The notes: a model not told the origin generated them from the letters alone. DNA of 63,950 nucleotides, filler included, from an uncultured Methanoregulaceae archaeon (GCA_964530035.1; 3 parts of 3 records of this genome joined end to end with filler, not necessarily neighbours in it), one strand, 5' to 3'; positions 43,848-63,950 are shown, numbered from the whole stretch's first letter. Program-made: numbers and translations.

Positions 43848-45092
43848 TCATCCCCCGCTCTGGAACTTCTTGTATCCTGATGCCAGGAGTGCCGCTCCGA
43901 CCGCCCCGATGTATTGCGAATACTGCGGGACAACGATCTGTGTCTGCAGGAGGTCACCCATTGCCTTGACCAGGCCACCGATGAGCGAGGAACCACCCAC
44001 CATGATTACCGGCTCCTTGATGTCCACTTCCTGGAGCTGCTGTTCGAAGACCTGCTCGGCCACGCTGTGACAGGCGGCAGCAGCGACATCCTCCCGCGAA
44101 TTGCCTGCTGCAAGGGCGTTTACCAGGCTCTGGGTCCCGAAGACGATGCAGTAGCTGTTCATGGGCACATTCCGGCTCATCCCTCTCAGGGCAAGCGGAC
44201 CGAGCTCGGTGATATCGACACCGAGCCTCTTCGAGGTCATCTCGAGGAAGCGCCCGCTTGCACCGGCACAGATACCACCCATCGTGAAGGTCCCGGGGAT
44301 GCCGTCCTGGACGGAGATGGCCTTGTTGTCCATCCCGCCGATATCTATGACGGTTGCCGGGCCCTTCTGGCAGTCGGCAAGGAAGACGGCCCCTTTCGAG
44401 TTGACGGTGAGCTCCTCCTGGATAAGGTCGGCCTTGATCTTTTCACCGACCAGGAACCTGCCATATCCTGTTGTGCCCACCGCTTCGATATCTTCACGAC
44501 TGACGCCTGCCTCTTCGAGGGCGGTTGCCATTACCGCTTCGGCAGATCCGATGACCTCGGTCGTCGGCAGCCACCCTGTGCCGATGATCCTGTTGTCCCG
44601 CATGACGATTGCCTTGGTCGTGGAAGAACCCGAATCGACGCCCATGGTGAGCCCCTCCTGTTTCTCCCGGGCAAGGAGCGCCCTTCTCCTGGCGATCGTG
44701 GTCAGCGCCTCCATGCGCGTGAGGAGGGTTCCTGATGTCGTCCTCTCGGTGAAGGAGTAGGAAACGACGGGAAGGGTCGAGTTCTCGTGGATGTACCGCC
44801 TTAATTCATTCCTGACAATGGCAGCCTCGGCACACCTGAAGCAGGTGGCGATAAAAACTGCGTCTGCCTCGAGTGCTCCTTCGACCAGTCCCTTTGCCCG
44901 GGCAATAGCCAGCTTGAGGTCCGGACTCCTGACATTCAGGCCGAATGAGCCGAAATTCCGCCGGACATCTGCAAGCCGGATGTCGGGAAAAAAGATCTCG
45001 GCATCGACCGCGGCTGCAGCATCGTTTATCTCCTTCTGAACCCCGCTATATTCCGGCCCACAGGAAAGCTGGGCGATCCTGACCCGGCTCAT
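43848..45092 (-). CDS. mmp15: Methanogenesis marker protein 15 (BadF/BadG-type ASKHA ATPase)
   Basis: [46 protein letters not shown]. Confidence 0.92.
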
Positions 45093-45535
45093 TCCGCCCC
45101 TCCAAGGGTGTCAAGGAATGACTTTATCGCTGCCACGAACTCCTCTCCTTCCTTTTCATCCGAGGGGTAGTTCAGGTCGAGGACGGGGATCCCGCGCTGC
45201 CGCACGAGAAACATGATGAGCTCGTTGGTCCTAGCGCAGCCCATGCAGCCGAATGCATAATCTGCATCGTTCACGATGATCGCACCTTCTGCAGCCTCGA
45301 TAAGGGGGCCGTAGAGTGACATCCTGCCCCGGACACCCGAAGGGACCTCGACAGCCGCGTACTTGAGCCCTTTCTTCGCGTCCTCAGGGGTGATCTGGAG
45401 CGGAGGGGAGTCGAAACCGGCGGTCTGGATATGCTCACGGACCGAAAGTGCGGACCCAAGTGGTTTGTGGCCGAAACGTGCGACGAGGTCTGAAAGGATC
45501 AGGCTGGTTGCAGGATAAATGAAAACGTTCGCCAT
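45089..45535 (-). CDS. mmp5: Methanogenesis marker protein 5
   Basis: [34 protein letters not shown]. Confidence 0.92.
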
Positions 45536-45536
45536 T

Positions 45537-45998
45537 TCAGGGCTCCGTCTTGTCTATGATCTTTTTGAGGGACGTGGTGTCGAGATAGGTCTTTTTTACA
45601 GGCGAGGGGGGATCGGCCTCCGTTCCCGGCGCCCTGGACTTCAGGGCGGCTAGCCCGTGCGAGACGGACCTGAGGACAAAGTTCACCTCGTATTCATGGC
45701 CAAAGTATCCGGGGCGGGCGCCGCCAAGGTTCGCACGGCACCTCCTCTCGTCACCCGGTGGAAACCCCCTGTCCTTCACGAAAACGTGTTCAGGGTCGAA
45801 TGATCTAAGGCGTTCGAGGACCCTGTCAACCTCTTCCGGCAGGCCGGTTATCTGCAGGCCGAAACAGGTCTCCTTGATCATCACCCCTTCAGAGACCTCG
45901 TAGGCCTTGATGGCAAAATCGGTCGGAGTCATCTCGGGGGACTCGATAAAAACGTACTTGGTCACGGTCCCGACGTATTTCGGCTTATACTCCTTCAC
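45537..45998 (-). CDS. mmp6: Methanogenesis marker protein 6
   Basis: IKETCFG, FVKDRGFPPGDERRCRA...GARPG. Confidence 0.9.
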   Translation of the reverse strand: MKEYKPKYVGTVTKYVFIESPEMTPTDFAIKAYEVSEGVMIKETCFGLQITGLPEEVDRVLERLRSFDPEHVFVKDRGFPPGDERRCRANLGGARPGYFGHEYEVNFVLRSVSHGLAALKSRAPGTEADPPSPVKKTYLDTTSLKKIIDKTEP

Positions 45999-47527
45999 CT
46001 GTTCACCTCCCGAATAAACACGGTTTCACCTTCTTTCCTCTCTTTCAGCCGTTTCATATCCACTACCCGGCCGATGATGTTCGTCCCGTCGAAGGGCTCC
46101 GAGGTCGGCCCGAACTCGGCGTTTTCCGTACCCCGTACACCTACCATCCCGGTCCCCTTCCGCGAGTCATTGGTCATGCCAAGGACCCCCGCCGGTACCG
46201 GACCTCCCGGTGTGTTTTCAGGGTCAATCCTGACCCCGGCAGGTACCTTAGGTTTGAAGAGGAACACGTCGTCAAAGCTGAAGAAGAAGGGGATCCTCCC
46301 TACGTTGTGCTGTGCAAGTCCTGTGATGCGCCTGAAGATGTCACAGGTAACGGGGGCGTTCCGGTCATCCAGGTCAATGTCGATAACGTCCGCAAAGGGG
46401 ACCGTTTCGAGCTCCACCTCGCCCCTAAAAAGGGCTTCAAGTGTCGTCCCCGGGTTCTGGCGGATGATGACGCACTCGCCTCTCACGGCAGTGCAGTCAG
46501 AAATGAGCTTTATCCCTCGTTTTTCAGCTGATTCTATCGCAACGGGCTTAGGGAGGCCGACCAGGTCGAACCTCCGGGGCTCTGCCGTTACAGAAAGCGT
46601 TTCACCCTCCTTTGCGAGCATTGCCAGTTCAATACCATTGGTGACCTGGCCGACGACCGTATGGGCGGGCGAAGAGGGGAGGTCCTCAGTATAAATGTAG
46701 ACCGCTCCACGTGACTTTCCCCGCGTCCGGACGGTAACCGTCCCCTGCCTGCGCCCGGCTGGTAACTCCTGGACCACGTCGGTACCGGTAAAACGTTCAT
46801 CCCGGATATGGGTGCTGGTAGAGCGGCCGATCTGAAACACGCCCTTCTCGAGGGCAACCAGGAGGTGTTCGACCGAGGCGGCGACAGCCGGGTCTACCCG
46901 CTCCCTGGCACAACCCTGGGATCTGATGGTCATCCGCGATATGACCTGCATACCTTCCTCAAGGACGATGCCGGTATCGCTGGTCGTGAAGGAGGTGCTG
47001 GTCTCAGAGAAGCTGATGACCGGTTCTATCCGTTCCACGCGGTCACCATGGGACAACCGGTCGAGGACACCGCGGCCTGAGACTACCCTGCCGATAACAC
47101 CGCCGTCATCTCTCGCCCCATGGTCTGCGACATGACGCATCCTTGACAGTACGAGATATGCCTGCCCGGGGTCATAGCCCCCGCATCCGATGATAACGTC
47201 CCCCCGCTCGTACCGGGAGGCCCTCCTGGAAGGCTTGAAATCAGATGAAAAAGGACCGAAAGCCGCGGTATACCGGTCAGTCCACTTTATCCCGAGGGAA
47301 GGTAACAAGGCAGGATGGTTGGAAAAAAGCCCGTCCTTGTCGCTAAATTCTATGATGACCTCCCCGGCACCGGTGGTAAGTTTCAGGTTCCTTGTAGCCT
47401 GGGACTCCCGTGCTCCGGGCAGGATGACCGCTACGGAACGACCCGGGACATGGTCGGGAAGGACAGAGGAAAGAGGAGTGCCGGGGTCAACCTCCCGTTT
47501 CACCCCGTCGATTATGACGGCGGGCAT
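45995..47527 (-). CDS. mmp3: Methanogenesis marker protein 3 (cyclophilin-like domains)
   Basis: HTVVGQVTNGIEL, PENTP, GMTNDSRKGTGMVGVR, FGPTSEPFDGTNIIG. Confidence 0.92.
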   Translation of the reverse strand: MPAVIIDGVKREVDPGTPLSSVLPDHVPGRSVAVILPGARESQATRNLKLTTGAGEVIIEFSDKDGLFSNHPALLPSLGIKWTDRYTAAFGPFSSDFKPSRRASRYERGDVIIGCGGYDPGQAYLVLSRMRHVADHGARDDGGVIGRVVSGRGVLDRLSHGDRVERIEPVISFSETSTSFTTSDTGIVLEEGMQVISRMTIRSQGCARERVDPAVAASVEHLLVALEKGVFQIGRSTSTHIRDERFTGTDVVQELPAGRRQGTVTVRTRGKSRGAVYIYTEDLPSSPAHTVVGQVTNGIELAMLAKEGETLSVTAEPRRFDLVGLPKPVAIESAEKRGIKLISDCTAVRGECVIIRQNPGTTLEALFRGEVELETVPFADVIDIDLDDRNAPVTCDIFRRITGLAQHNVGRIPFFFSFDDVFLFKPKVPAGVRIDPENTPGGPVPAGVLGMTNDSRKGTGMVGVRGTENAEFGPTSEPFDGTNIIGRVVDMKRLKERKEGETVFIREVNR

Positions 47528-47530
47528 GGT

Positions 47531-48760
47531 CTATCCCGCAGGAGCAGACTGCGGTTTGCCCATCACTTCCCGTTCGTCCTCGGTAAGACTTGCAAGGACC
47601 TCTGCGGTCTTCCCTATGGTGACGATCTTTCCCCCCCGCATCAGTGCGCAGCGGTCGCAGATGTCCCTGACGAACTCCATGTCATGGGATACGACGATGA
47701 AGGTCTCGTCCATCTCCTCGCGTGCATGCATTATCGAGTGCTTGACATCGATCTTGGTGATGGGGTCCATGGTCCCGGTGGGCTCGTCAAGGACCACTAT
47801 CCTCGGTTCACGGATGAGGACCTGCGCCAGTGCGACCCGGTGCCGCTCCCCCTCGGAGAGCTGCGACGGGTAGCGTTCAAGGATGTCCTTGCTCTTTTCG
47901 GCAGTAAAACCGGCCATTTTCAGGGTGATGATTGCCTTCCGCATGGCGAGTTCCTTCGGGAACTCGAGACCGATGGCATCTGTCAGGTTATCGAGTACGT
48001 TCCGGTGGGGAAACAGGTCGTACTCCTGGTGGAGGAGGCCGATATAACTCTTTGCCCTCCCCCGGTTTTCTATGCCCGGTTTGGTCATATCGACCCACTG
48101 TTCGCCGATCCTGATATTCATCTCGCCCGAGGTCGGTTCAACAAGACCGGAAATAATCCGGGAGAGGGTGGTCTTTCCTGCGCCGGATTTCCCGATGATG
48201 CCAAAGATCTCCTTTTCGCCCACTTCAAACGAAACCCCGTTCACCGCCCGGACGAGGCCGCGGTCGACGGATATGAACCGCTTCACAACGTCACGTGCGA
48301 CAAGCAGTTTCTCGCCAATCTCCGTTGTTTCATACTGCTCGGTGTCCGACCGCTGGAGCATGAAGCGGCTGATGACGTCGTGGGGGGAGCCGATGACTTC
48401 TATCGAACCATCCACGAGGAGGATTGCCCGGTTTGCGACGTCCTCGATGACCTGGGAGAAGTGCGACGTGACGACCATGCCCATGTTGTTTGTCCGGGCG
48501 GCGTCCTTGAGCATCCCGTGGACGACCTTGGCCGTACCCGGGTCAAGAGTCCCGGTGGGCTCATCGGCAAAGAGCATGAAGGGGTCCTTTGCCAGCTGAC
48601 GTGCAAGCACGACCCGCTGTTTCTCCCCGCCCGAGAGGTCCCGGGCGATATGCATCATGCGGTGGGAGAGCTTGACCTGGTCGACGAGGTCTGCAGCCCG
48701 CCCGATCGCCTTTTCAGCGGGAAAGCCAACTTCGTCCAGGGCTTTTAAGACGTTTTCGAT
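47531..48760 (-). CDS. atwA: Methyl-coenzyme M reductase system component A2 (5' end lost at the gap)
   Basis: MHIARDLSGGEKQRVVLARQL, ADEPTGTLD, GKSGAGKTT, LSEGERHRVA; open to the contig edge. Confidence 0.93.
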   Translation of the reverse strand: MENVLKALDEVGFPAEKAIGRAADLVDQVKLSHRMMHIARDLSGGEKQRVVLARQLAKDPFMLFADEPTGTLDPGTAKVVHGMLKDAARTNNMGMVVTSHFSQVIEDVANRAILLVDGSIEVIGSPHDVISRFMLQRSDTEQYETTEIGEKLLVARDVVKRFISVDRGLVRAVNGVSFEVGEKEIFGIIGKSGAGKTTLSRIISGLVEPTSGEMNIRIGEQWVDMTKPGIENRGRAKSYIGLLHQEYDLFPHRNVLDNLTDAIGLEFPKELAMRKAIITLKMAGFTAEKSKDILERYPSQLSEGERHRVALAQVLIREPRIVVLDEPTGTMDPITKIDVKHSIMHAREEMDETFIVVSHDMEFVRDICDRCALMRGGKIVTIGKTAEVLASLTEDEREVMGKPQSAPAG

Positions 48761-48860: not shown

Positions 48861-49293
48861 GTATCCCGAGATCTCCAAAGAGCCCTATGCGGTCGAGTTC
48901 CCCGAGAGCTGCCGAAAGCGACGGTCTCGGGGGCATGACATCGTAGACGTGCACGGTCTGTATCACCGACGGGTCAGGGTCACAGATGAAGAGCAGGTGT
49001 TCGTCATGTCCCTGGAAAATGGTGCATCGGGTTTCTGACAGGCTCGCCAGCTCGATCAGCCGCGTGCGGTCTGCCAGTTCCACCTTTCCGGGGTAGAGCG
49101 TCACTTCTTCAGGCCGGGCAATGACGCGGGACGACCTGACCGGCCTCATGAGCCCCTCTCCCTCACCCGGTTCGACTTCGATGATTTCGGGTCCTTTCAC
49201 CGTTTCCCGGATGATATAGCGGGTGAGGAAATACACCCGGTCACCGCAGGGGGTACCGCACGAGTGCCCGACCTGCTTGTACGGGAAGATCAT
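48861..49293 (-). CDS. Hypothetical protein (3' end lost at the gap)
   Basis: ATGA overlap with aksE; MIFPYKQVG...RVYFLTRY...CTIFQGHDEHLLF. Confidence 0.75.
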
Positions 49294-49760
49294 TTCCTCT
49301 CCTTCATGTAGGGGACCATCCCGCCTGATGCCAGGATCTGCCGCATCTTCCCCGAAAGTGGGCGGAACGTATACTGTTTTCCATCCAGGGTAATGACGGC
49401 TTTTTCCATGTCGATCACGACCCCGCTCCCTGCAGAACAGGGCAGATCACATTCAATGACGGGAAGCCCAAGGTTGATGGCATTCCTGAAGAATATCCGG
49501 GCCACGGTCGGAGCCACCACGGCCCGTACACCTGCGTCTCTCAGGGCTACGGCCGCCTGTTCACGCGAGGACCCGCAGCCGAAGTTTTTCCCCGCGATAA
49601 TGACCGCCCCGCCGATACGGGTGGCCAGCCCCGGGTCAAGGTCCTCAAAGACGTGCCTGGCCCAGGACGACCGGTCCTTCGTCCTGAGATACCGGCCGGC
49701 GACGATGAGGTCGGTATCGATATCGGCACCGAGGCAGACCGCAGGGCCCCTGATGATCAT
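49290..49760 (-). CDS. aksE: Homoaconitase small subunit
   Basis: DIDTDLIVAGRYLRT (YLRT loop of methanogen homoaconitase), NFGCGSSREQA, RIFFRNAIN. Confidence 0.88.
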   Translation of the reverse strand: MIIRGPAVCLGADIDTDLIVAGRYLRTKDRSSWARHVFEDLDPGLATRIGGAVIIAGKNFGCGSSREQAAVALRDAGVRAVVAPTVARIFFRNAINLGLPVIECDLPCSAGSGVVIDMEKAVITLDGKQYTFRPLSGKMRQILASGGMVPYMKERK

Positions 49761-50968
49761 CCTGCTCCCTCCGGAGATGTTATTTCGCCACGGATGGCGC
49801 TTGCGGCCGCCGTCCCGACAGAGGCGAGATAGATCTCCCCGCCTATCCCCATCCGGTTCTTGAAGTTCCTGTTCGCGGTCGAGAGGCAGACCTCGCCTTC
49901 GCCCAGGACCCCGGAATGGACTCCGAGGCATGGCCCGCAGCCTGGTGGTGCGACCATGCAGCCCGCGGCGATGATGTCCGCGATGTGGCCTGCGGCAAGC
50001 GCCTCAAGATAGACCCGCCTTGACGCAGGGACGACGATAGTCCTGACCGCCACCTTCCTCCCCTTCACGGCCCTGGCGAACCGTGCGATATCCGAGGCCC
50101 TCCCGTTCGTGCAGGTGCCGACAAAGACCTGGTCCAGGGCGATCCCCTCGCACTCCCCGACCGGTTTGATGGTATCCACCCGTGGCGGAATGGCAACCAC
50201 AGGCACTACATCTACGAGGTCGATGGTCGTTTCCGACGCATAGTCTGCTGGTTCCAGACGTTGCTCCCCGGTATGCACTCCATACCCACGGAGGTACTCG
50301 CAGGTCGTCCTGTCGGCGTAACACAGGCCTGCCTTGGCACCGGTTTCCACGGCAAGGTTGCACAGCGTCAGCCGGTCGTCCATGCAGAGATGGGGCATTG
50401 CTCCTCCGACAAATTCAAGCGCCATGTATGACCCTCCGTCCATTCCGAGTTTCGCGACGTAGGTGAGGGCAATATCCTTGGCCTCGGAGGCATTGCTTAA
50501 ACGCCCATCAATACTGACCCGTATTGTCTCCGGTACCCTGAGCCAGGTCTCTCCCGAGGACCAGACCGCTGCGAGGTCGGTCGCGCCGACACCGGTGGCA
50601 AATGCTCCAAAAGCACCGAGGGTACAGGTATGGGAGTCGGCCCCTACGACGACCTCTCCCGGGACAACGAGGCCCTCGGCCATAAACTGGTGGCTGATCC
50701 CGCCCCCGCAGTCGGAAAACCTGATGCCGTGCTCGCCAGCGAACTTCCGGAGGTCTGCATGGAGTTCGGCCGTCGTGCTGTTGTTCGCAGGGACAATATG
50801 GTCGAATATGATTGATATGGTCCTGGGAGCAGCCAGGAACGATCCCATTTCCTTCCAGGAATGGTGGGCGAGGACTCCCGTCCCGTCATGGGCATAGGCA
50901 TGGTCCACGCGGCAGTCGACATAACTCCCGGCATCCGCCCCGAGGATCCGCTCGGCCAGCGTCCCCAT
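49757..50968 (-). CDS. aksD: Homoaconitase large subunit
   Basis: FDHIVP, GADSHTCT, GTCTNGR, GCGPCLG, STANRNFKNRMG; next to aksA and aksE. Confidence 0.87.
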   Translation of the reverse strand: MGTLAERILGADAGSYVDCRVDHAYAHDGTGVLAHHSWKEMGSFLAAPRTISIIFDHIVPANNSTTAELHADLRKFAGEHGIRFSDCGGGISHQFMAEGLVVPGEVVVGADSHTCTLGAFGAFATGVGATDLAAVWSSGETWLRVPETIRVSIDGRLSNASEAKDIALTYVAKLGMDGGSYMALEFVGGAMPHLCMDDRLTLCNLAVETGAKAGLCYADRTTCEYLRGYGVHTGEQRLEPADYASETTIDLVDVVPVVAIPPRVDTIKPVGECEGIALDQVFVGTCTNGRASDIARFARAVKGRKVAVRTIVVPASRRVYLEALAAGHIADIIAAGCMVAPPGCGPCLGVHSGVLGEGEVCLSTANRNFKNRMGIGGEIYLASVGTAAASAIRGEITSPEGAG

Positions 50969-52096
50969 TTACGCTGTCTCCTCCTGGGCTTTCTGTATCA
51001 GGCAGAGGAGGAAGTCCCTGTCCACGCTCCCTTTCTGCTCCCCGCGTTCCTTGACCTTCTCGAGGATCCAGCAGATCTTCTTCTCACTGACCGGGGCCCC
51101 GAGGGACGTGAGGACATGTTCCAGTGCTTTTTTCCCGGTGTGCTTCCCCAGGATGAAGTGCCGTTCCCCGCCGACGAGTTCCGGCGGCACGTACTCGTAG
51201 GTCGACGGGTCTTCGATGATCGCGGCGATATGTATCCCGCTTTCATGCGAAAAGGCATTTTCTCCGACGACCGGCTGGGTCTTACCTACCGGGATGCCGG
51301 AGTAGCGTGACACGATCTGGGATATTTCGTGGAGGTGGGAGAGGTCATACCTGTTGACGCCGCCCTTCAGGCGGAGAGCAACGAGGACCGCCTCGAGGGG
51401 CGCGTTTCCCGCCCGTTCTCCGATGCCGTTGACGGTCGTATGGAGCTGGAACGCACCTGCTTCGGCAGCGGTTATGGTGTTGGCCGCGGCGAACCCGAGG
51501 TCATTATGGCAGTGGGCACAGAGGGGGATACCGACCGACGACACGAGATCGGTCATGATATGGTACATCTCGAGGGGGGTCAGGAACCCCACCGTATCGG
51601 CGAAGCTGACAAGGGATGCCCCCCGTTCCTCACCCTGCCGGTAGACCTCCTTCAGGAACGAGAGGTCAGTCCTTGACGCGTCCTCAGCCGCAAAACGAAC
51701 CGCCATTCCGTGGTCGCGGGCGAACTCGACCATGTCGAGGGCAGACGCCAGGACCTGTTCACGGGGTTTTTTGTACTTGTGACGGATATGGAGGTCGGAC
51801 GTGGCAATGAACAGGCTCACCATGTCGACGTCGCAGTCTATCGCGGTCTCCACGTCCGCTTTTACAGCCCGTGCGAGGCAGCATATCCGGGCGTCCAGGG
51901 AGAGACCGGCGATGCGTTTCACACACATTTTTTCATTCGCCGATACCGCAGGGAACCCGGCCTCGATGACCTCGACACCAATCTGGTCGAGCAGCCGGGC
52001 GATCACCTCCTTCTCCTCGCAGCTGAACGAGACCCCGGGGCTCTGTTCGCCATCGCGGAGGGTTACATCGCAGATCTCAACATTCCACGGTTTCAT
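50969..52096 (-). CDS. aksA: Homocitrate synthase (2-oxoacid chain elongation)
   Basis: DVTLRDGEQ, AEDASRT, HCHNDLG, GERAGN, HESGIH, LGKHTG; short form with no LeuA regulatory domain. Confidence 0.88.
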   Translation of the reverse strand: MKPWNVEICDVTLRDGEQSPGVSFSCEEKEVIARLLDQIGVEVIEAGFPAVSANEKMCVKRIAGLSLDARICCLARAVKADVETAIDCDVDMVSLFIATSDLHIRHKYKKPREQVLASALDMVEFARDHGMAVRFAAEDASRTDLSFLKEVYRQGEERGASLVSFADTVGFLTPLEMYHIMTDLVSSVGIPLCAHCHNDLGFAAANTITAAEAGAFQLHTTVNGIGERAGNAPLEAVLVALRLKGGVNRYDLSHLHEISQIVSRYSGIPVGKTQPVVGENAFSHESGIHIAAIIEDPSTYEYVPPELVGGERHFILGKHTGKKALEHVLTSLGAPVSEKKICWILEKVKERGEQKGSVDRDFLLCLIQKAQEETA

Positions 52097-53345
52097 GGTG
52101 CCTCCCCTCGGGACAACGCCCGGTGACCACGACAGTGACCGGCCGGTCCGGAAGGACGATATACTGACTGAGTTTTCCTTCATCCGTTGCTTCGCACACG
52201 ACAGGCTGTGCGAAATCAAGGTATCTCCCGATGGGTGGTGCCGCCTGACCGCCGGTCATCGCCATGCTCCCGTTATCCATGACCACCGTCAGGAGGGGGA
52301 TCCCTTTCTGATACACGTCGATAAGGCTGACAATCCCTGAATGGAGCATCCCGAAATCACCGATAAGGGCGACGCGGGTCGACCGTGCGGCGACCCCCAC
52401 GGATGATCCAAGGCCGTAGGTGGAGATACCATTCTCCCATGGCGGGTTCATCAGCAGGAGCGAGCAGCCCGCGTCGCACACGGCGACAAGCCCCCGTTCT
52501 GCGAGGAGCCTGAAAACAGTGACAAACGGGCACGCGGCACAGAAGGTCCGCGAGTACCCGCGTGAGGCGGTTGTTTCAGGGGTGCCAGGGCACGGCCCCG
52601 GGAAAAATTCCCGGTGTCCTGCCAGGAACGGCCGCCCTGTTTCATGGATCTCAATGCCCGGCGGGAGCGGCGGCGGCGGGTAGACCGTGACAACACGCAT
52701 CTCCCCGGGGGCTGCCCCGGTACCGGCGGTACCGTCCCCCGGCACGTTGAGGGGCGAGGACGCGGACCACCCGGATGCCCCCTCGAAAAGACAGCGGGCA
52801 GCGGTGCTCCTCCCCGCCATCGTCAGCCCCTTTCCTGCAAGGGAACCCATCCCTTTTTTTCCTGCCAGACGGGCATTTGCCGAATGGGCGAGGAGGACCT
52901 CAGGGGTGACCCTGACGATGGCAACCCGGGAGAACCGTTCCGATGCAAGGAACGCCTCCTCCACCGCCTGCATACAGGTGTCCGGGCCTGGCTCAAGGAC
53001 AGGGACTTCGAGGATCTCGCCGTAATAGCGCGAGTCCTGGGCATTCTGGGAGAATGCAGCCTTTGTATCATCCCCGACGATGACCACCACCCCGCCACGG
53101 AGGCCCTGGACCGTCGCGTGGGCAATGACATCCGAGGCAACGTTCAGGCCCGGGTGTTTCATGATGACGGCCGCCCGTTCCCCGGAAAGGGACTTTCCCA
53201 GGGCGTACTCGACCCCGGTTTTCTCGCTTGTCACCAGTTCCGCCCGGCAGGTGTCCATCAGGCCCGTGACGGGAAAACCCGGCACTCCAAAGGCAACTGC
53301 TCCACACCGTGCTATCCCGATGCCTATCGCTTCCTCGCCGTTCAT
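52077..53345 (-). CDS. Thiamine pyrophosphate-dependent enzyme, shortened IorA-like
   Basis: GVPGFP, MKHPGLN, SQNAQDSR, FCAACP, DAGC, IGDFGMLHSG...DNGSMAMTGGQ; no ferredoxin domain, no iorB nearby. Confidence 0.85.
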   Translation of the reverse strand: MNGEEAIGIGIARCGAVAFGVPGFPVTGLMDTCRAELVTSEKTGVEYALGKSLSGERAAVIMKHPGLNVASDVIAHATVQGLRGGVVVIVGDDTKAAFSQNAQDSRYYGEILEVPVLEPGPDTCMQAVEEAFLASERFSRVAIVRVTPEVLLAHSANARLAGKKGMGSLAGKGLTMAGRSTAARCLFEGASGWSASSPLNVPGDGTAGTGAAPGEMRVVTVYPPPPLPPGIEIHETGRPFLAGHREFFPGPCPGTPETTASRGYSRTFCAACPFVTVFRLLAERGLVAVCDAGCSLLLMNPPWENGISTYGLGSSVGVAARSTRVALIGDFGMLHSGIVSLIDVYQKGIPLLTVVMDNGSMAMTGGQAAPPIGRYLDFAQPVVCEATDEGKLSQYIVLPDRPVTVVVTGRCPEGRHHETVEC

Positions 53346-54310
53346 GAATCCCTCCCCGGCACAAGGTCGCACCCGGTGCATGCCGTGCACATGGTCACGG
53401 CTGCCCGGGGATCAAGACCGGCTGACGAGAGGGCCCTCGTGAGGACGGTGTTGAGGTGCAGCAGACGTCCGGCAGACGGACGTCCGTATCCCGGGATACC
53501 GTCATTCGGCGACAACGGCCTGATCACGGGGATGACGCCCATGCCGGTGAGCATCGCGATGCATTCCTCCATCTCGCCATCGGTCTCCCCAAGTCCGGCT
53601 ATCACATTTGAAAAAACGTGGTTTTTGCCAAAGAGCGGTATTGACTGTTCAAGGGCGTGGAGGACCGCGTCACGGTCCAGCCCGGGACACATCGCTGCAA
53701 ATATGGCAGGGGTGGCGGCTTCGAGGTTCCACTTGACCTCGACGACACCGAGCCCAGCCAGCTTTTGCGGCGTATCTGGTCCGGGAAAGATGGAAACCCC
53801 TATCGGGATGCCAAACGGCAGCAGTTCCCTGACCACTTCAAGAACATAGGCCTCCTCTTCCCCGATTGATCCAAGGATTCCGCTTGTCAGGGAGACAGCG
53901 TCGATGCGGTCATGCACCCGGCGGACCATTTCCTTGATCTCTTCGACTGTTTTCCGCCTCCGGGCCTCCCCGGGAACCCTGCAGTACAGGCACCCCTGCA
54001 CGCAGCCCTCGCTCACGGTGATGAATGCCTGCCTGGGGCAGTGAAACCCGACCTCGAGGATACGTCCCGAAACGATCTCGTCACCGAGGCGGAGTTCTGC
54101 CCTTCCCCCGCCGAGGTGATGTATCTCCACAGCGGCGTTTTCATCGAGTGAAAGCCTGACCCGGTGGCCGTCGCAGCCGAAAAAAACCGATCCCCTGCCA
54201 CCGGCAGACGGCCCGGCCGTGGATGTCCCGAGGTATTCCCCGGCCGGTTCGCCGGTAAGCCTTGCGCCCCCGGCTTCAAGGAGGCGTGCCTTCAGGGTCA
54301 GCCACTGCAT
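53342..54310 (-). CDS. Radical SAM protein (biotin synthase-like fold)
   Basis: CVQGCLYC motif, SLTSG, NLEAA, IAGLGE, extra C-terminal MCTACTGCD. Confidence 0.88.
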   Translation of the reverse strand: MQWLTLKARLLEAGGARLTGEPAGEYLGTSTAGPSAGGRGSVFFGCDGHRVRLSLDENAAVEIHHLGGGRAELRLGDEIVSGRILEVGFHCPRQAFITVSEGCVQGCLYCRVPGEARRRKTVEEIKEMVRRVHDRIDAVSLTSGILGSIGEEEAYVLEVVRELLPFGIPIGVSIFPGPDTPQKLAGLGVVEVKWNLEAATPAIFAAMCPGLDRDAVLHALEQSIPLFGKNHVFSNVIAGLGETDGEMEECIAMLTGMGVIPVIRPLSPNDGIPGYGRPSAGRLLHLNTVLTRALSSAGLDPRAAVTMCTACTGCDLVPGRDS

Positions 54311-55185
54311 AGGAGAAGTGCCTCGTCGAAATGGGTCGCAAACGGTATCGCAGCCACGGCACCGGTGATCCCCCGTCCCTTCAGGACCAGGGTGAGTTCA
54401 GCGAACGGAAGCCCGGAAACTGCTGACGGCTCGACTTCGCCACGTTTGACCGCCCAGCCGAATGGAAGGAGGACTGACGGGTCGAAACCTGAGAATGCCG
54501 CCATGCCGGTCTCTTTCGAGAGCGTATACTGTTCCAGGAGGGCCTTGAACCGCGCGATCAGGTCGCCGGGGCGGTCGGTCGCGAACTCGCAGGCTATCGA
54601 GACGCAGTTCTTGGTCCTGAATGCCACGGGAAAGAGCTGGACGATGGTGTGGGACAGGTATACCGCGTGTTCATCCTCAATGGCACGGCAGATATTGTGG
54701 GCAAGGGTCCAGGTCGCTCCCGCTTCGGGCGTATCGGTGTCGTCCACCCCGATGATCACTCTATTCATGCGGGGGAGGACGATCGTCGAACCGGCCCGCT
54801 TACCCCCCCCGGATGGATCGGCATCGGCTGAAATGACACCCCCGGCGGTCGATCGGGCGGCTGCCGCCCCGACACCCCCGCCACCGAGGCCTTCATACGA
54901 CACCTTAACCTTGTCCTCCGTCACCATGACCTGCGAGATGCCGGCCGGAAACTTCGAGCCCTGGAGGTCCAGGTCGGCTGAACCGGTCCGTATCATGTAC
55001 CGGTTTGATGACCCAACAGTCCGTACACTCTGGACGACCGGGCTGTTCCGGTAGTGCTTTTTCACCCACATCGCACCGCCGATGCAGTCAAAGAACTCCA
55101 CAAGCTCCACGAGTTCCCCTGATTCGTCAGCAAGGGCACAGATCCTGGGGTAGACTATCGTGTAAGGGTCAGAGATGTTCTCCAT
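54298..55185 (-). CDS. mmp11: Methanogenesis marker protein 11
   Basis: DPYTIVYP, EFFDCIGGAMW, GLGGGGVGA, IGVDDTDTPEAGATW, VQLFP...TKNC. Confidence 0.82.
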   Translation of the reverse strand: MENISDPYTIVYPRICALADESGELVELVEFFDCIGGAMWVKKHYRNSPVVQSVRTVGSSNRYMIRTGSADLDLQGSKFPAGISQVMVTEDKVKVSYEGLGGGGVGAAAARSTAGGVISADADPSGGGKRAGSTIVLPRMNRVIIGVDDTDTPEAGATWTLAHNICRAIEDEHAVYLSHTIVQLFPVAFRTKNCVSIACEFATDRPGDLIARFKALLEQYTLSKETGMAAFSGFDPSVLLPFGWAVKRGEVEPSAVSGLPFAELTLVLKGRGITGAVAAIPFATHFDEALLLCSG

Positions 55186-56122
55186 ACAGTCCTGCTGCCT
55201 CGGTGCCGTCATGGGCCCAGAGGAGGGCCCCGAGTGCACCTATTCGGCCTTTTTTCTCGTTCCTATCAACAAATTCCGCCCCTATTTCCGCCGCAGCGGC
55301 CAGGGCCTCCCCGTAGGTGACGATTTCCGTTTTGACGCGTCGCTTGAGGGGGTGGTCAGGAACTGCCAGCCCCCGCATCACCACGATACCCGTATCGCCG
55401 GATACGCTGGCAGACTGGACACCTTCACGGACCGCCTCCACGAGGGGGAGGACGGCTGATGGCCTGGCTGCAAAGGAAAGCACGGTCCCGACGCAGTTTG
55501 TCGTTTTCTTGGGGACGGCAGGGTTCAGCTGGACAAGCCGCATCGACAGAAACTCCGTGCCCGGCACGGTGCATGACTCGGCACAGCGGAGGGCGGTCAC
55601 CCAGGTCGCCCCGGTTTCCTTCGTGTCGGTGTCATCGACCCCGATCGTGACCTTTTCAAAAACTGGGGAGACGATCCTCACCCTGTTTGTCCGTGCCCCT
55701 CCCGTAACGAGGTCCTCTTCCGAGGGGTACTCAGCCCGGATAACTCCCGGCGCCTGCGCGAGGCAGGCTGCCACGCCTACCCCGGCCCCGGCTATTCCCT
55801 TCCAGGTAGTGATCACCTCGTCTCCCCTGATTTCAACGCCTTCAAGCGCCTGGCCCCCGATCTCGGCGTCCGAGGGTCCGAACTGGACGGGATATGTCCC
55901 GATACGGGCTTTCAGCGTGAGGGTCGAGCCTTCAACAGAACAGGCGGTCGTTGCCCCCCCCGCACGTCGCCGGTTCATCGCGTCCCATTCAACCGGGCCC
56001 CTGGCCCGGCACTGCTCGATGATCTCAGCCGTTCCAAGGGCTGGATCGACCATGACAAGGAACTTTTTGGAGAAAAGCTGCCCAAACCTCTCTTTTATCT
56101 CTGCGGGAGTCCTGGTTATCAC
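55169..56122 (-). CDS. Mmp11 paralogue (TiaS-like C-terminal domain)
   Basis: GIAGAGVGVA, IGVDDTDTKETGATW, VQLNPAVPKKTTNC, GRIGALGA. Confidence 0.78.
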   Translation of the reverse strand: MITRTPAEIKERFGQLFSKKFLVMVDPALGTAEIIEQCRARGPVEWDAMNRRRAGGATTACSVEGSTLTLKARIGTYPVQFGPSDAEIGGQALEGVEIRGDEVITTWKGIAGAGVGVAACLAQAPGVIRAEYPSEEDLVTGGARTNRVRIVSPVFEKVTIGVDDTDTKETGATWVTALRCAESCTVPGTEFLSMRLVQLNPAVPKKTTNCVGTVLSFAARPSAVLPLVEAVREGVQSASVSGDTGIVVMRGLAVPDHPLKRRVKTEIVTYGEALAAAAEIGAEFVDRNEKKGRIGALGALLWAHDGTEAAGLYGEHL

Positions 56123-56305: not shown

Positions 56306-57193
56306 TTATGAAAACAGGCTGTGTAGTTCTATCTTGAATGGCCCGAGACTTCCGCCGAAGTTGCCGGCAGTGATGAACTTCACACCAGGGACCATGACCG
56401 CTGCACGGATGCCCTCTGCCATCGCATCGGCAACCGACTCTTCGTCGATCCCATCAATGACAATCTCGTATGCCGCTGTCACTCCTGCCGGGATCTTGGA
56501 GTCCGCCACCTTCTCCCTGATCGTGGGGCAGTATTTTTCATTCGTGCTTGCAGGCATGAACTTGTACTTGTTCGAACCTACTTTTGAACCGCTTGCCACG
56601 ATCCCGCCCGGGAAGCTCGTGATGACGCCACAGACCCCGCCAATCGCGTCAACCGCGGCCTGGGCGCCCATGAGGGCAGCCATCTGGTTCTCGCCCATGA
56701 CAAAGAAGTTGCCCCCGGCGACTCCCTTGACAATCCCGAAGTCCTCCTCGCCGACGTATTCTCCTTCCATGATCGGGATGACCCAGCACTTCCGTCCGCC
56801 GACCTCCCTCTGGTACTCGTAGCCGTCGCCGAAGAAGTGCAGCTTGATCGGAATCCGTTCCTCTGCATCGGGAAGTCCGTCAAAGACCGCGGTCGTCGGG
56901 GCGGTCAGGACGCACTCCGCGACCCGCTCCAGGACCTGTTCCTTGACCTTCTTCTTGCTTGCGCAGAAGAGAACGGCACAGCCCGGCCTCCCGTCAGGGG
57001 TCTCGTCCCCGGTGAGCATGCCCTCGATTCCAGCCTCGCACGGGCACCCGATCGCAGACGTTGCAAACCCGGTGGCCTCGAGGGCCGCCTTGTATGCCCA
57101 TTCCTCGGTGACAGCCGTGATAATTACCCTGCATACCCAGGTCGGGAATGCCTCGGCATAGGTATTGTCGATCGTAACTCCGTTGATCTCCAT
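56306..57193 (-). CDS. ftr: Formylmethanofuran:tetrahydromethanopterin formyltransferase
   Basis: MEINGVTIDNTYAEAF, TPDGRPG, LTAPTT, GVAGGNF, SGSKVGS, AGNFGGSLG. Confidence 0.96.
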   Translation of the reverse strand: MEINGVTIDNTYAEAFPTWVCRVIITAVTEEWAYKAALEATGFATSAIGCPCEAGIEGMLTGDETPDGRPGCAVLFCASKKKVKEQVLERVAECVLTAPTTAVFDGLPDAEERIPIKLHFFGDGYEYQREVGGRKCWVIPIMEGEYVGEEDFGIVKGVAGGNFFVMGENQMAALMGAQAAVDAIGGVCGVITSFPGGIVASGSKVGSNKYKFMPASTNEKYCPTIREKVADSKIPAGVTAAYEIVIDGIDEESVADAMAEGIRAAVMVPGVKFITAGNFGGSLGPFKIELHSLFS

Positions 57194-57540
57194 AACCTTC
57201 CTCTTACCATGTAGAATTGCCACGTAGGATACAATAACCTTATGAAATCCCGCCCGGGGGACTATATCCCCTGACACCCGGAGATTCTTATTTCGCAGAA
57301 AAGCTTCTTTTTCACCGATACAAGCGTGTTTCCAGCCACGTCGGAAAAAAAGGGCATCTCTGCCTTAATACATGGATAAACCGCATAATGCTATATGTAA
57401 GGAGCGCACCTAGGCTCCCATTGATAGATCGATACCCATGGCTGCAGAATATGAGTTGTATCAGGGCCAGGGGGGTGCAGGACATGGTACATGTCTCCAT
57501 ACCTTCATCGGGCTTGAGAAAGGAGGGCCCGATGGGATTA

Positions 57541-60093
57541 TTATATGCCTGCTTTTTTCCTTCGGCGGCGTCTTTTCTTTCTGAAAACCGGACCGCTGTC
57601 CCTGACCGATACGGTGACCAGGGAATGTTTGCGAACTACCGCTGCCTCCTCCCGGGTCAGGCCGTACAGCCTGAGGAAATGGTCATCCGGCCCGCAAGGG
57701 AGCTGCCTGTTTCCGCAGTCTCCGCCGACTTCCTCCGTTTCAGGTCCACAGGGGGCAGGAGTCACCCGTTTCCGGGATGCCAGGACTGCATCATACAAGG
57801 CCCTCTCAGAAGGGTCGAACAGGTCCGGTACTCTGACAGGAACACCAGCTATCACCCCGGCGAGGTCTCTATGGAGGAGCGGATGGGTTGAGATATAAAA
57901 AGAGGCAAGGGATGATTCGAGAAAACGGATGAGATAACGGTCCCTCCCCGGTATCCTGACGGTCATCCGCAGGTCTCTTCCGTGAGAACCGTGCAGGCCG
58001 TGGATATCTGCCAGGGTGAACGGGTCGGGACTGTGGTGCCTTGCAGGGACCCGGATAGCTGGCGCAGCCGTCGGTTCTCTTCCGGAAGTTCGGGCCTCAT
58101 CATCAGGACGTGTACAGGGAGGACGGCCGTTCCCGGTCATTCCCTGAGTGGTGCAAACGATGACCTCGCCCATGCAGTACTCGCCGAGGGGTGTTCCTGC
58201 CTCCTCCATTCTTCTTCTCAGGTGGGACACACTGCGGTCTTCGAAATTCCAGTATGCGGCTTCACGACCGGGATGAGCGGATACGCCTTCATGCACTTTC
58301 ACCCAGGAATCCTTACGGTACCGGTAACGGGAATGCCGAATATACGCACCGGGTGGCCCTTTATGAAGGACCATGCCCACGGTGTCTCCCTGTACCCCTG
58401 GAGCGTGCCCGGATTCAAACGAATCCAGCCTCATGACGTTGAACCGTGAAAACAGGGACCTGATTTGCCTGCCATATGCTGAAAAAAGCCAGCCAGCGGG
58501 AGAAAGTGAATAGAGGTGTCCACCCGGGGCGGTTTTTTCCAGGGCCTCCTCGGCAAGGTACTGGAAAAACCCCGCTCCCTTCTGATAGACAGCCGAGTTT
58601 TCCTCGAGGAACGCACGGTCCCGACCTTTCATGTGTGACCGTCCGGCACCAGAAGTGACGAGGACCGATGAAAATCCTTCCGCGGTTTCCGGTTGAACAA
58701 ACAGTTCGGATATCGAAGGTGGAGGAGTTTCGTGGGATTCTCCCGGAAACGAAGCCCAATGCCGGTCCCACCAGGAACGGGTGACAAATGGGGAACTGAG
58801 CCTCATGGTGCCGGCACCCCCGGCTCCAGCCTCGTTCCCGGGTATTGATTGATCCCCATACGCCATTTCGAGGGTTGCAAGGAAGGCCCGGCATGCGAGC
58901 ACCGTGCACAGGTCAGGCGATGCCAGGAAGATACGGCCCAGGGAGGACCTGATAACGGTTTCCAATGTATCTGATGATGGAGGTTTCCGGGGGCCGGGCA
59001 GCCCCCCGGTCCCGGAGAAGCCGTGCGTGGCTGCCAGACGATCCTGTGCCACCAGGCACCAGGCTATCAGTGGCGCCAGCGTTCCCGGGCCCTCTGCTAT
59101 CTCCAGGAACCTTGATCTGCGGTCTGAAGCAAGATGCCGGACTATCTCACGGACGTAGTCATCGACAACCGGTACATCCAGGACCGATCGGCGGATATTT
59201 CCAGCATCAGCCGGTAACTGGAAATAACCCGGTCCTCCCCTGAGCCCTGTGCAGAACCAGTTGAGCGCCCGGAAAACGGTGAACTGGGGCAGGGGATGCA
59301 GGACGAAGGTACCCGCCTGGTCCAGGGCCGCCACCTCCTCCCAAAAGGTCCTTTCCGGAAGACAAAGTGTGCTGATATCACAGTACCAGGGGTCCGTTTC
59401 TTCCAGAAATTTTCTCATATACCAGGAGGGACCTGTTTCGACTCCGTTTCGCTCCGCGCCCGGACATGATGCCGTCCTCATCAGGAGGGCCAGGGTCATG
59501 CACATGGACGCCACAGAGAGCCGCAGATCGGTCTCACCAGGATTTTCTGCCAGTATTGCCCTTCGGAATGTTTTTTCAGCCAGGACAAGCCGTTCTGCCA
59601 GCTTTATTGCCGGTGCTTCTTCTGAACCCCTGTCACCGGCGGGGTGCTGCACGAGAGCTCTCAATGGTTCCGGGACACCCAGACGGCCCTGGAAAGACCT
59701 GTCGAAGGGATGCCCTTCCATTATGACATCCTTCCACCCGCACCCGATCACTCCGGGGCTGCCCACGGCACCAGCATCCCCCGGGACATTTCCTGTGCGG
59801 ACCACCAGGGCCCGGGAGGGATAGACGAGGTACACTCCGGGAACTCCATAACTCCACCCCGTCCTGCTGGCATCAGTACACTCCCGGCCTGTGCCCGGGC
59901 TTCCGGTATCCTCAGCCGCCATATATAGGACGACCCCGGGGTGTACCGGGCATATGTCGCTAAAACCGGTCACAATAAGGTTATCCCCGGAACGTCCCGC
60001 CCCAGGCGGACCTGCTACCGGCATGGCGTCCATGTAGGAAAAGCCGCTTGAGGCAAGGACCCTCGCCGCCCGGGTGTACAGGGTGGTATTCAT
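57541..60093 (-). CDS. Degenerate type IIG (Eco57I/TaqI-like) restriction-modification-related protein
   Basis: Strong SD GGAGGTGA before ATG 60093. Residual N6-MTase/TRD pattern: YLAEEALEKTAPGGHLYSLSPAGWLFSAYGRQIR, YLIRFLESSL, LYGLTREE. Motifs I and IV are altered. Confidence 0.65.
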   Translation of the reverse strand: MNTTLYTRAARVLASSGFSYMDAMPVAGPPGAGRSGDNLIVTGFSDICPVHPGVVLYMAAEDTGSPGTGRECTDASRTGWSYGVPGVYLVYPSRALVVRTGNVPGDAGAVGSPGVIGCGWKDVIMEGHPFDRSFQGRLGVPEPLRALVQHPAGDRGSEEAPAIKLAERLVLAEKTFRRAILAENPGETDLRLSVASMCMTLALLMRTASCPGAERNGVETGPSWYMRKFLEETDPWYCDISTLCLPERTFWEEVAALDQAGTFVLHPLPQFTVFRALNWFCTGLRGGPGYFQLPADAGNIRRSVLDVPVVDDYVREIVRHLASDRRSRFLEIAEGPGTLAPLIAWCLVAQDRLAATHGFSGTGGLPGPRKPPSSDTLETVIRSSLGRIFLASPDLCTVLACRAFLATLEMAYGDQSIPGNEAGAGGAGTMRLSSPFVTRSWWDRHWASFPGESHETPPPSISELFVQPETAEGFSSVLVTSGAGRSHMKGRDRAFLEENSAVYQKGAGFFQYLAEEALEKTAPGGHLYSLSPAGWLFSAYGRQIRSLFSRFNVMRLDSFESGHAPGVQGDTVGMVLHKGPPGAYIRHSRYRYRKDSWVKVHEGVSAHPGREAAYWNFEDRSVSHLRRRMEEAGTPLGEYCMGEVIVCTTQGMTGNGRPPCTRPDDEARTSGREPTAAPAIRVPARHHSPDPFTLADIHGLHGSHGRDLRMTVRIPGRDRYLIRFLESSLASFYISTHPLLHRDLAGVIAGVPVRVPDLFDPSERALYDAVLASRKRVTPAPCGPETEEVGGDCGNRQLPCGPDDHFLRLYGLTREEAAVVRKHSLVTVSVRDSGPVFRKKRRRRRKKAGI

Positions 60094-60768
60094 GGAGGCG
60101 TCACCTCCCCTTTCAGGCCTCTTGATATCGGCCCGGTTGGCCAGGTCATCGTTTTCGCCACGTGACTCCATGGAGTATGCAAAGATCCGTAGGCAATCAC
60201 GCCACAAAAACCTTTAACCAGGCAACCCGGGGTGAAAGCAGATAATTGGTTGGTTGCCATGGTTTGCTCCTTATCGCCGGTTCCTAAGTATGTACCGGTG
60301 ACATCGCCACCAGGGGAAAGATGACGCTGTAGGGATAGTCCTGTACTGATGATTCTTAAAACACCCTCCCCTCCACAAAGTTAAGCTATTCTGTTGATCT
60401 TTCCAGATACAATCCCGCCTCACAGGGATGGTACCGTGACTTTCAGGACGGGCAATAATCTTGTAAATACCTGGAATTTTTAAAAAATAATGATATTACA
60501 GGAATAAATAGCTCTTTTTTCAGGAGAGCCCCCCCTCAATGAATCACTGGAGAAGTGATATCCCAAATCGGCAATGATCGCAGGTTTTTTGCCACGGTTA
60601 AAATACATCTGTGCTTAACTTTTTCTTCTTTCTGGTACTTGTGCTTACCCCATCCCGGCAGGACAGCTACGCCCGGTGAAAGTAAATCAGAAGAGTTTAT
60701 CTACGTTTGTAATCTATTTTCTTTTAGTCGATTTTCGAATCGATAGACGCTGGTGCGTGATTAAAAAG

Positions 60769-61032
60769 ATGGCATTTGCAGTGCATGTAAACATGGAACA
60801 CTGTACCGGATGCAACAATTGTGTGGTCGCATGCCCGGTTGATGCACTCGAGCTCTACACGGTGGACCCGGCAACCAATGAGAAGATTTACAAGGTCCGT
60901 GCTGGGAAGTCCATTGTCCTCGATTTTAAGCAGGAGCTCTGTGCAGGGTGCGGGGTGTGTGTCGAAGCCTGTCCACACGGTGTTATCAGACTGTCCGGCA
61001 AGGGTGTGGCTGCTCCGCAGGCAAAGGTATGA
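60769..61032 (+). CDS. fwdG: 2[4Fe-4S] ferredoxin-like subunit (FwdG/FmdG-like)
   Basis: CTGCNNCVVACP and CAGCGVCVEACP; directly upstream of the polyferredoxin. Confidence 0.8.
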   Translation: MAFAVHVNMEHCTGCNNCVVACPVDALELYTVDPATNEKIYKVRAGKSIVLDFKQELCAGCGVCVEACPHGVIRLSGKGVAAPQAKV

Positions 61033-61075
61033 GCATGAGGTTTTGCGGAAAATAGGTGAGATGTGAGGATACTGC

Positions 61076-62239: not shown

Positions 62240-62252
62240 GGGCTGAAGAACC

Positions 62253-62834: not shown

Positions 62835-62843
62835 ATACTATCC

Positions 62844-63743: not shown

Positions 63744-63761
63744 TACTGATGGAGGATAACC

Positions 63762-63950
63762 ATGGCTGAATCCAAGAAGACTGAAGCTAAGAAAGAAGCC
63801 CGTGTTGGTGTGTTTATCTGCCACTGCGGTACGAACATCGCTGGTTCCATGAGCATCGAGGAGGTCCAGAAATACGCTGGCGAACTTCCGGATGTTGCCT
63901 ATGTCGATAACTACCAGTACATGTGCTCCACCCCGGGCCAGAAGAAGATA
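63762..63950 (+). CDS. hdrA: Heterodisulfide reductase subunit A (5' part only)
   Basis: SD GGAGG; MAESKK...RVGVFICHCGTNIAG...YQYMCSTPGQKKI, open to the window end. Confidence 0.93.
   Translation, partial: MAESKKTEAKKEARVGVFICHCGTNIAGSMSIEEVQKYAGELPDVAYVDNYQYMCSTPGQKKI

Follow-up and report, generated by a model that had tools for sequence, protein, structure and literature searches.

An operon joining aks genes to candidate enzymes for the late steps of coenzyme B biosynthesis

Coenzyme B (CoB) is required at each turnover of methyl-coenzyme M reductase (MCR), and part of its synthesis is known chemistry: AksA, AksD, AksE and AksF elongate 2-oxoglutarate to 2-oxosuberate. Here we analyze a 63,950-nucleotide stretch of DNA (hereafter the window) from an uncultured Methanoregulaceae archaeon (GCA_964530035.1), made of three contigs joined by N-linkers and taken from a genome (G000) that is 86% complete, in which aks genes are joined in one operon to genes for four uncharacterized enzyme types. 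From the anatomy of the operon and the homology, synteny and co-occurrence of its genes, we consider it probable that it also covers the late steps of CoB synthesis beyond decarboxylation. The route to 2-oxosuberate is set out in the accessible parts of PMC3087415, together with suberate- and 7-oxoheptanoate-type intermediates, and of PMC10384328, where 7-oxoheptanoate and 7-mercaptoheptanoate are given as the accepted intermediates; in their accessible text, the latter paper (2023) and PMC12068725 (2025) describe the enzymes acting after 2-oxosuberate as unknown.

Several described systems resemble parts of the operon, and they are outlined here as far as the accessible parts of the sources go. 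The MMP16 and L-ASST (COG1900) aldehyde sulfurtransferases carry out the same net chemistry as the sulfur step, aldehyde to thiol, and are the published candidates for it (PMC12068725), but they are encoded elsewhere in the genome. XcbA (NF052538), a bacterial coenzyme M (CoM) thioaldehyde reductase, is a [2Fe-2S] enzyme that reduces sulfoethanethioaldehyde to CoM (PMC9457059). LipS2 places sulfur at the end of an octanoyl chain, on C8 of octanoyl-lysine, and holds a second cluster through one internal and two C-terminal Cys residues, C85, C276 and C279 (PMC9585515), while bacterial TIGR04043 relatives (MSMEG_0568/Nit1C type) lie in a functionally uncharacterized nitrilase cluster (PMC1199592). 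A further related system is AksADEF (M00608 in KEGG, cited by PMC10384328). The operon has four genes of the same families, with its aksE in the YLRT clade described below, but their products all score below the NCBIfam equivalog cut-offs HacA_Meth, HacB_Meth and AksF_Meth.

The operon sits at the left end of contig C46, where eight minus-strand genes (56122-48861; Table 1) run up to the contig end. All junctions are overlapping or abutting, because the computed gaps from gene 1 to gene 8 are -17, -13, -4, -20, 0, -4 and -4 nt. This had been read from the sequence in an initial annotation of the window, whose identities for the first seven genes, encoding an Mmp11 paralogue (Mmp11b), Mmp11, a radical S-adenosylmethionine protein (rSAM), a thiamine diphosphate (ThDP) enzyme (TPP), AksA, AksD and AksE, are borne out by profile matches; its count of at least eight genes also stands, but the gene it had left as unknown can now be named DUF7714. 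This eighth gene is truncated by the end of C46; its C-terminal part, an aksF-like gene and a gene resembling endonuclease IV are found together at one end of contig C82, also from this genome, matching the order in relatives; no shared sequence overlap was found between C46 and C82. With the remainder of gene 8 and aksF on C82, the operon therefore comprises nine genes. It is real, and the original observation is confirmed. All four Aks families are present, three in the window and the fourth on C82, consistent with the earlier statement that aksF is outside the window.

The order Mmp11-rSAM-TPP-aksA-aksD-aksE-DUF7714-aksF was found in all 20 loci examined from the same order, with Mmp11b in front in 15. 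A further, partly overlapping set comprised the 80 closest Mmp11 loci, whose names are mostly Methanomicrobiales; 66 of them had at least 8 kb downstream, and in 64 of these all eight genes from Mmp11 to aksF were present, the exceptions being one locus without an rSAM match and one ending at aksE. Because they are kin and were picked by Mmp11 similarity, the same-order loci are not independent. A related-locus search started from a diverse alignment of Mmp11 reached no distant phyla; the loci it gave are all close and mostly labelled Methanomicrobiales.

Outside the order the cluster is fragmented, yet the gene links recur, with parts of the operon in four other families. We sampled 151 genomes of the phylum (numbered with G, their families with f), 92 of which carry mcrA after one match (G168, E 2e-4) was removed from an initial 93; Pfam scans of candidate neighbor open reading frames (ORFs) took in 73/104, 42/96 and 65/128. 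The run aksE-DUF7714-aksF occurs in 7/7 f7 and 2/2 f23 loci, and Mmp11 adjoins TPP in 6/6 and 2/2 loci of the same families. TPP, aksADEF and DUF7714 stand together in 4/4 f10 and 5/5 f14 loci, with Mmp11 also present in four of the latter five. In f8, f16 and f17, Mmp11 adjoins a related rSAM in eight of nine Mmp11 loci, and in the ninth it lies directly upstream of mcrB. Operon neighbors were absent at two f10 Mmp11 loci, and two DUF7714 loci are isolated, one being on a short contig and the other a second copy.

Natural experiments divide the operon into two modules. In two genomes of genus g86 (G177 and G181), it is split into a TPP-aksADEF unit and an Mmp11b-Mmp11-rSAM-DUF7714 unit. In three others (G180, G183 and G186; 99, 95 and 97% complete), orthologues of the short TPP, aksD, aksE and aksF were not found and only leu-type paralogues with 37-44% identity are present, while Mmp11b-Mmp11-rSAM-DUF7714 is retained (L324, L323 and L342). 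A lone aksA-like gene is left in two of the three, in one case beside nitrogenase-like genes. A screen of 20 small-genome loci found the full operon in 11, a local inversion in five and the reduced form in four. Salvage, either of a C7 precursor or of CoB itself, is predicted for the three reduced genomes.

We propose that CoB synthesis is encoded as an upstream and a downstream module. In the upstream module, AksA/D/E/F would take 2-oxoglutarate to 2-oxosuberate, from which the short IorA-like ThDP enzyme would remove C1 to leave a C7 unit, most simply 7-oxoheptanoate. In the downstream module, this aldehyde would take up sulfur, supplied or inserted by the rSAM through an auxiliary cluster, and the XcbA-like Fe-S protein DUF7714 would reduce the thioaldehyde to 7-mercaptoheptanoate. 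The kinase domain of Mmp11 would then make an acyl phosphate to be attacked by threonine, phosphorylate the threonine hydroxyl, or both, probably acting together with MtxX, an unlinked phosphotransacylase-like protein.

By family and clade, the aks genes of the operon are assigned as aksA, aksD, aksE and aksF, and their elongation of 2-oxoglutarate to 2-oxosuberate is putative here. The YLRT motif noted earlier in aksE is present, and we take it to be a mark of homoaconitase, as reportedly shown by Jeyakanthan in 2010. That the small-subunit loop sets specificity is stated in the accessible part of PMC7308503. In a small-subunit tree built from 73 of the listed rows, aksE falls in a YLR(T/S/R) clade (34 rows, support 100/99) that holds the operon copies of its own order, f7, f10, f14, f23 and G066. 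The genome also holds a second aksD paralogue on contig C151, where the small-subunit paralogue lies outside this clade, and two other aksA paralogues with 45-46% identity. NF040626 was rejected as an aksF profile, having matched 146/151 genomes and all 14 controls; within this phylum it does not distinguish AksF and LeuB. No YLRT-type AksE was found in the 20 genomes tested from f8, f9, f12, f15, f16, f17, f20 and f27, families that seem to lack the known Aks part as well.

The TPP protein has ThDP-binding motifs and four conserved Cys residues in common with IorA (TIGR03336). E41, G329, D330 and N358 are invariant in 17 sequences, PF02775 is matched above its cut-off, and C269, C272, C294 and C411 are likewise invariant. 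With a score far below the TIGR03336 cut-off (Table 1), it belongs to a separate subfamily: the short form (370-550 aa) has a ferredoxin motif in 0/24 and IorB downstream in 0/24 cases, whereas canonical IorA has the motif in 18/19 and IorB in 14/19, forms its own clade (support 100) on a 1.49 branch and coexists with the short form in the same genomes. A PDB sequence search gave two weak matches only. In the phylum sample, the short form scores above 570 bits in 18/18 f7, 5/5 f10, 10/10 f14 and 5/6 f23 genomes, the sixth f23 genome having a split match that its locus confirms; the short form did not turn up in f8, f9, f12, f15 or f27. Its synteny, co-transfer and co-loss with the aks genes make it likely that the enzyme decarboxylates 2-oxosuberate, and they support well both the decarboxylase role and the link to CoB put forward in the initial annotation. 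The reaction may be oxidative, because the four putative cluster Cys residues are kept. In the mcrA-less genome G066 (L201:8803-18728), bioB-bioW-bioU-like-bioF-bioD-aksA-aksD-aksE-aksF-short TPP form a single run, and the TPP copy has lost the Cys motifs, which favors a decarboxylation with no need of a cluster. In G066, which has an acidic proteome, the pimelate for biotin apparently comes from 2-oxoacid elongation.

DUF7714 (PF24830) was found in 155/155 genomes of the order, and a search for one without it returned none. It is a full-length but distant XcbA homologue and, as judged by profile scores, not a member of that family: three full-length orthologues reach 38-69 bits against NF052538, whose cut-off is 150, and the proteins are about 25% identical. 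DUF7714 further differs from XcbA in being archaeal and in lying among aks genes instead of xcbB-E. Its profile matched 175 of 1.84 billion representatives; of 150 listed, the 60 that were scanned all match the XcbA family only, 39 of them above cut-off. Five Cys residues (C166, C189, C210, C224 and C225) and one His are invariant between DUF7714 and XcbA-family proteins in 18 aligned sequences, and the Cys set would be able to hold an Fe-S cluster. A fold search ended without a clear match, the best reaching Z 8.0 (82 residues). Since it outlasts the loss of TPP, DUF7714 does not depend on that enzyme as an obligate partner, and its role lies downstream or elsewhere. By analogy, conversion of the thioaldehyde to 7-mercaptoheptanoate would be the CoB parallel of the XcbA reaction, and the balance tips slightly toward DUF7714 as the enzyme responsible.

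The initial annotation had assigned the sulfur step to the rSAM on account of its extra Cys residues. These are indeed present: besides the canonical CX3CX2C motif, five are invariant (C91, C208, C308, C311 and C314), including a C-terminal CxxCxxC. The best thiol candidate is nevertheless DUF7714, and the rSAM is more likely its sulfur-handling partner. Like LipS2 and TIGR04043, it is related to biotin synthase and has extra conserved Cys residues with a C-terminal group, but its matches to both profiles are weak and far below cut-off (LipS2 41.3 bits; cut-off 270), it has more extra Cys than LipS2, and the operon is without the nitrilase-cluster genes of the bacterial TIGR04043 family. Its nearest solved structures, both weak matches, are LipA and BioB. 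The TIGR04043 family is found in 101/151 genomes, including 92/92 with mcrA, and may be an overlooked marker. In five scanned f15 and f27 loci it adjoins L-ASST, once also with MMP16 and ThiS and once with ThiF and ThiI; at two more loci of these families, an unscanned ORF equal in length occupies the corresponding position. A TtuA-like gene follows the rSAM in f20, as does Thi4 in one f16 genome, while no steady sulfur neighbor was found at two TIGR04043-type loci. We read it as a sulfur-handling enzyme, perhaps common to several thiol pathways; a CoB-specific role in sulfur supply or insertion is conceivable, although we would put it at somewhat below even. As separate observations, L225:900-6229 (G174), L219 and L216 hold a sulfur cluster of MMP16-like, L-ASST, ferredoxin, TIGR04043 rSAM, ThiS and DUF2099 genes, and in mcrA-less G092 (L205:23-5675) Mmp11-rSAM is followed by cysteate synthase-like, fused comDE-like and sulfonate-binding genes, that is, CoM genes without MCR.

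Mmp11 passes TIGR03280 (curated cut-off 255.8 bits) and Mmp11b is not a member. Residues 138-293 of the Mmp11 model match TiaS, the tRNA(Ile2) agmatinylcytidine synthetase (3amt; Z 19.0, root-mean-square deviation 2.2, 152 residues), and Mmp11 keeps GxDDTD and the Thr18 equivalent, T156, within the common kinase-domain fold. In contrast to TiaS, it has an N-terminal domain of about 137 residues and no C-terminal tRNA-binding part, the proteins ending about 170 residues earlier in the alignment; it scores 34.6 bits against 600 for full-length TiaS (NF040849), and true TiaS is encoded by a separate gene. TiaS reportedly phosphorylates a threonine as well as a carbonyl oxygen, the latter to allow attack by an amine (Terasaka, 2011), and formation of the CoB amide reportedly proceeds via an acyl phosphate (Solow and White, 1997). 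By this analogy, both remaining CoB steps would be of the same two kinds as the TiaS reactions. MtxX (methanogenesis marker 4), phosphate acyltransferase-like and encoded on contig C122 in this genome, occurs together with Mmp11 A/B in 74 of the 77 genomes holding either (MtxX alone in two, Mmp11 alone in one), and mtxX adjoins Mmp11 or Mmp11b in f14, G128 and G087 (L206, L207, L110 and L105). In the accessible part of PMC4153887, MtxX and a protein named like some Mmp11 matches are among the markers kept in Methanomassiliicoccales; we infer that the latter is Mmp11. We give even chances to Mmp11 and MtxX being the 7-mercaptoheptanoate:threonine ligase and threonine kinase.

Mmp11b likewise has a TiaS-type kinase domain and an N-terminal domain and gives a full-length profile match to Mmp11 (hhalign 100%). 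It is confined to f14, G128, part of its own order and, as a divergent copy, G122; in f14 and G128 it lies next to mtxX, and it is absent from 5/20 operons and from f7, f10 and f23. One copy therefore suffices elsewhere, and Mmp11b is dispensable. The initial annotation's division of ligation and phosphorylation between two TiaS-like enzymes cannot, as a fixed split, be general, because Mmp11b is so often absent. A third paralogue, Mmp11c, of about 375 aa and with an N-terminal extension resembling a helix-turn-helix (L209, L210, L211, L212 and L214), lies beside homoserine dehydrogenase in 3/5 loci; it is possibly a regulator and is no part of our model. Mmp11, DUF7714, MtxX and the rSAM family were all found in the genetically tractable Methanosarcina acetivorans control, and the four candidate types have orthologues in the family holding most Methanosarcinaceae-type matches.

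An unlikely account, though one that we take seriously, is that only aksADEF and TPP serve CoB. Mmp11, Mmp11b, the rSAM and DUF7714 would then be merely co-transcribed, with jobs in CoM or homocysteine thiol formation, MCR maturation or general sulfur metabolism, while the CoB thiol came from MMP16/L-ASST and genes elsewhere encoded the ligase and kinase. This would agree with the downstream four genes outlasting aks and TPP, with mcrB, ycaO/tfuA, cysteate synthase and comDE among the neighbors of Mmp11 elsewhere, with L-ASST, TtuA-like and Thi4 genes beside the rSAM, and with Mmp11, rSAM and MtxX in five mcrA-less genomes; moreover, in the accessible text of the respective papers, XcbA itself makes CoM (PMC9457059) and an MMP16/L-ASST double mutant was unobtainable (PMC12068725). 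Unrelated genes are not expected, however, to keep cross-module links through rearrangement, and such links are what we see: DUF7714 lies between aksE and aksF in 9/9 f7 and f23 loci and adjoins aksF in 9/9 f10 and f14 loci, and Mmp11 abuts TPP in 8/8 f7 and f23 loci where the remaining operon is scattered.

Two further alternatives keep more of the operon together and are much less probable. In one, which we consider improbable, Mmp11 and MtxX first build a C7 N-acyl-threonine (phosphate), the rSAM then inserts sulfur at C7, DUF7714 serves as reductant or disulfide reductase, and TPP works oxidatively via an Fe-S cluster. Mmp11-rSAM is the most widely kept pair, f16 and f8 mcrA genomes have Mmp11, rSAM and MtxX without YLRT-type AksE, short TPP or DUF7714, the TPP protein has its four invariant Cys, and the C-terminal Cys cluster and mid-barrel Cys of the rSAM may correspond to the LipS2 auxiliary ligands as given in the accessible part of PMC9585515; the Aks pathway, on the other hand, yields an oxidized C7 and not a methyl, the LipS2 score is just 41 bits, the rSAM was not found in the Methanocaldococcus jannaschii control, and the accepted intermediates are 7-oxo- and 7-mercaptoheptanoate. 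The other alternative starts from the fact that biotin needs the same C7 (pimeloyl) unit: the C7 product would feed biotin or lipoate, with the rSAM acting like a biotin or lipoyl synthase, as its nearest structures and the upstream module inside the biotin operon of G066 might suggest. We regard this as highly improbable. G066 uses a true BioB and gave no match for the rSAM family, Mmp11 or DUF7714, and bioD, present in 6/151 genomes, was found in 0/65 DUF7714 genomes, nor was it found in G000 (86% complete). Biotin is therefore not the product here and is rejected for the methanogens, so that activity on biotin precursors, which the initial annotation had named as a finding that would refute its proposal, does not count against it; the biotin version of this alternative is largely refuted.

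A number of points weigh against assigning the late CoB steps to the operon. All genome counts are among kin. The own genome holds the MMP16/L-ASST family. Salvage would account for the persistence of the four downstream genes after loss of aks and TPP, but a function with no connection to CoB would do so just as well. 7-Oxoheptanoate does not have the methyl end that a LipS2-type reaction requires, and no steady sulfur neighbor was found at eight close-type rSAM loci of f7, f10, f15 and f23. Absence of the genes from CoB users, which the initial annotation had listed as counting against its proposal, is found in part: Mmp11 falls below cut-off in 24/92 mcrA genomes (f12, f15, f20 and f27), DUF7714 is present in only 64/92 (plus one more genome of an mcrA-bearing family), and neither DUF7714 nor the TIGR04043 rSAM was found in the M. 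jannaschii control, so that Class I methanogens need other enzymes. Mmp11 in the mcrA-less genomes may be either a relic or a sign of another function; named Mmp11 matches include Geoglobus and Ferroglobus. The genes ahead of Mmp11 in metagenome loci of Methanobacteriaceae type are a leuCDB-like cluster of YLVL type, sufS and ribH instead of aks. These neighbors had been tried as aksDEF support; the large subunit does pass HacA_Meth, but the loci are not counted because their small subunits have YLVL and are placed outside the YLRT clade. Finally, family f15 (G049, G095, G105, G128 and G141) has mcrA without YLRT-type AksE, short TPP or DUF7714, and neither Mmp11 nor MtxX was found in 18/19.

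We found no assignment of Mmp11, DUF7714, the short TPP subfamily or the rSAM to CoB in the accessible literature, which mostly excludes subscription journals, and earlier hints may exist in supplementary marker-gene tables; the accessible parts of PMC11619418 and PMC10332631 make no mention of these genes. The operon thus offers four named, purifiable candidates with matching chemistry, making a long-open pathway directly testable. If our proposal is true, a methanogenic cofactor pathway would be closed, markers 11 and 4 would gain functions, and methanogen-restricted targets for methane mitigation and genes for heterologous MCR work would become available. Whether the operon and mtxX form the complete CoB gene set of Class II methanogens is more doubtful. 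Should they do so, this would name a new ThDP/Fe-S 2-oxosuberate decarboxylase and an XcbA-like C7 thiol synthase with an rSAM sulfur enzyme present in all sampled mcrA genomes of the phylum, a TiaS-derived small-molecule ligase/kinase would explain markers 11 and 4, some small-genome Methanomicrobiales would salvage a C7 precursor, and f15 would make or obtain CoB otherwise.

Table 1. Operon genes in the window, listed from gene 1 to gene 8.
Gene	Product	Coordinates	Strand	Profile or motif
Mmp11b	Mmp11 paralogue, 317 aa, GTG start	55169..56122	-	TIGR03280 183.7 bits, below cut-off
Mmp11	methanogenesis marker 11, 295 aa	54298..55185	-	TIGR03280 323.6 bits, above cut-off
rSAM	radical SAM, 322 aa, biotin-synthase-related, TIGR04043/LipS2 neighborhood	53342..54310	-	CX3CX2C
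TPP	short IorA-like ThDP enzyme, 422 aa	52077..53345	-	TIGR03336 150.8 bits, cut-off 650.9
aksA	(homo)n-citrate synthase, 375 aa	50969..52096	-	LEU1_arch/homocitrate synthase family, short form
aksD (hacA)	homoaconitase large subunit, 403 aa	49757..50968	-	hacA_fam above cut-off
aksE (hacB)	homoaconitase small subunit, 156 aa	49290..49760	-	YLRT loop
DUF7714	XcbA homologue, first 144 of about 267 aa	48861..49293	-	PF24830

The ESM Atlas held no information beyond Pfam. A link between the operon and the atwA-mmp3-mmp6-mmp5-mmp15-mmp17-mmp7 cluster (42328-48760) was rejected, as that cluster is on another contig (C13) and the proximity is an artefact of contig joining. On the other side of the operon, ftr lies 183 nt upstream of the Mmp11b gene. 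An 888-aa ORF (57541-60207, minus strand) with no Pfam or NCBIfam match separates ftr here from a divergent ferredoxin/polyferredoxin-hdrC-hdrB run that lies beyond it (window 56306-63950); in most relatives, ftr and this run abut.

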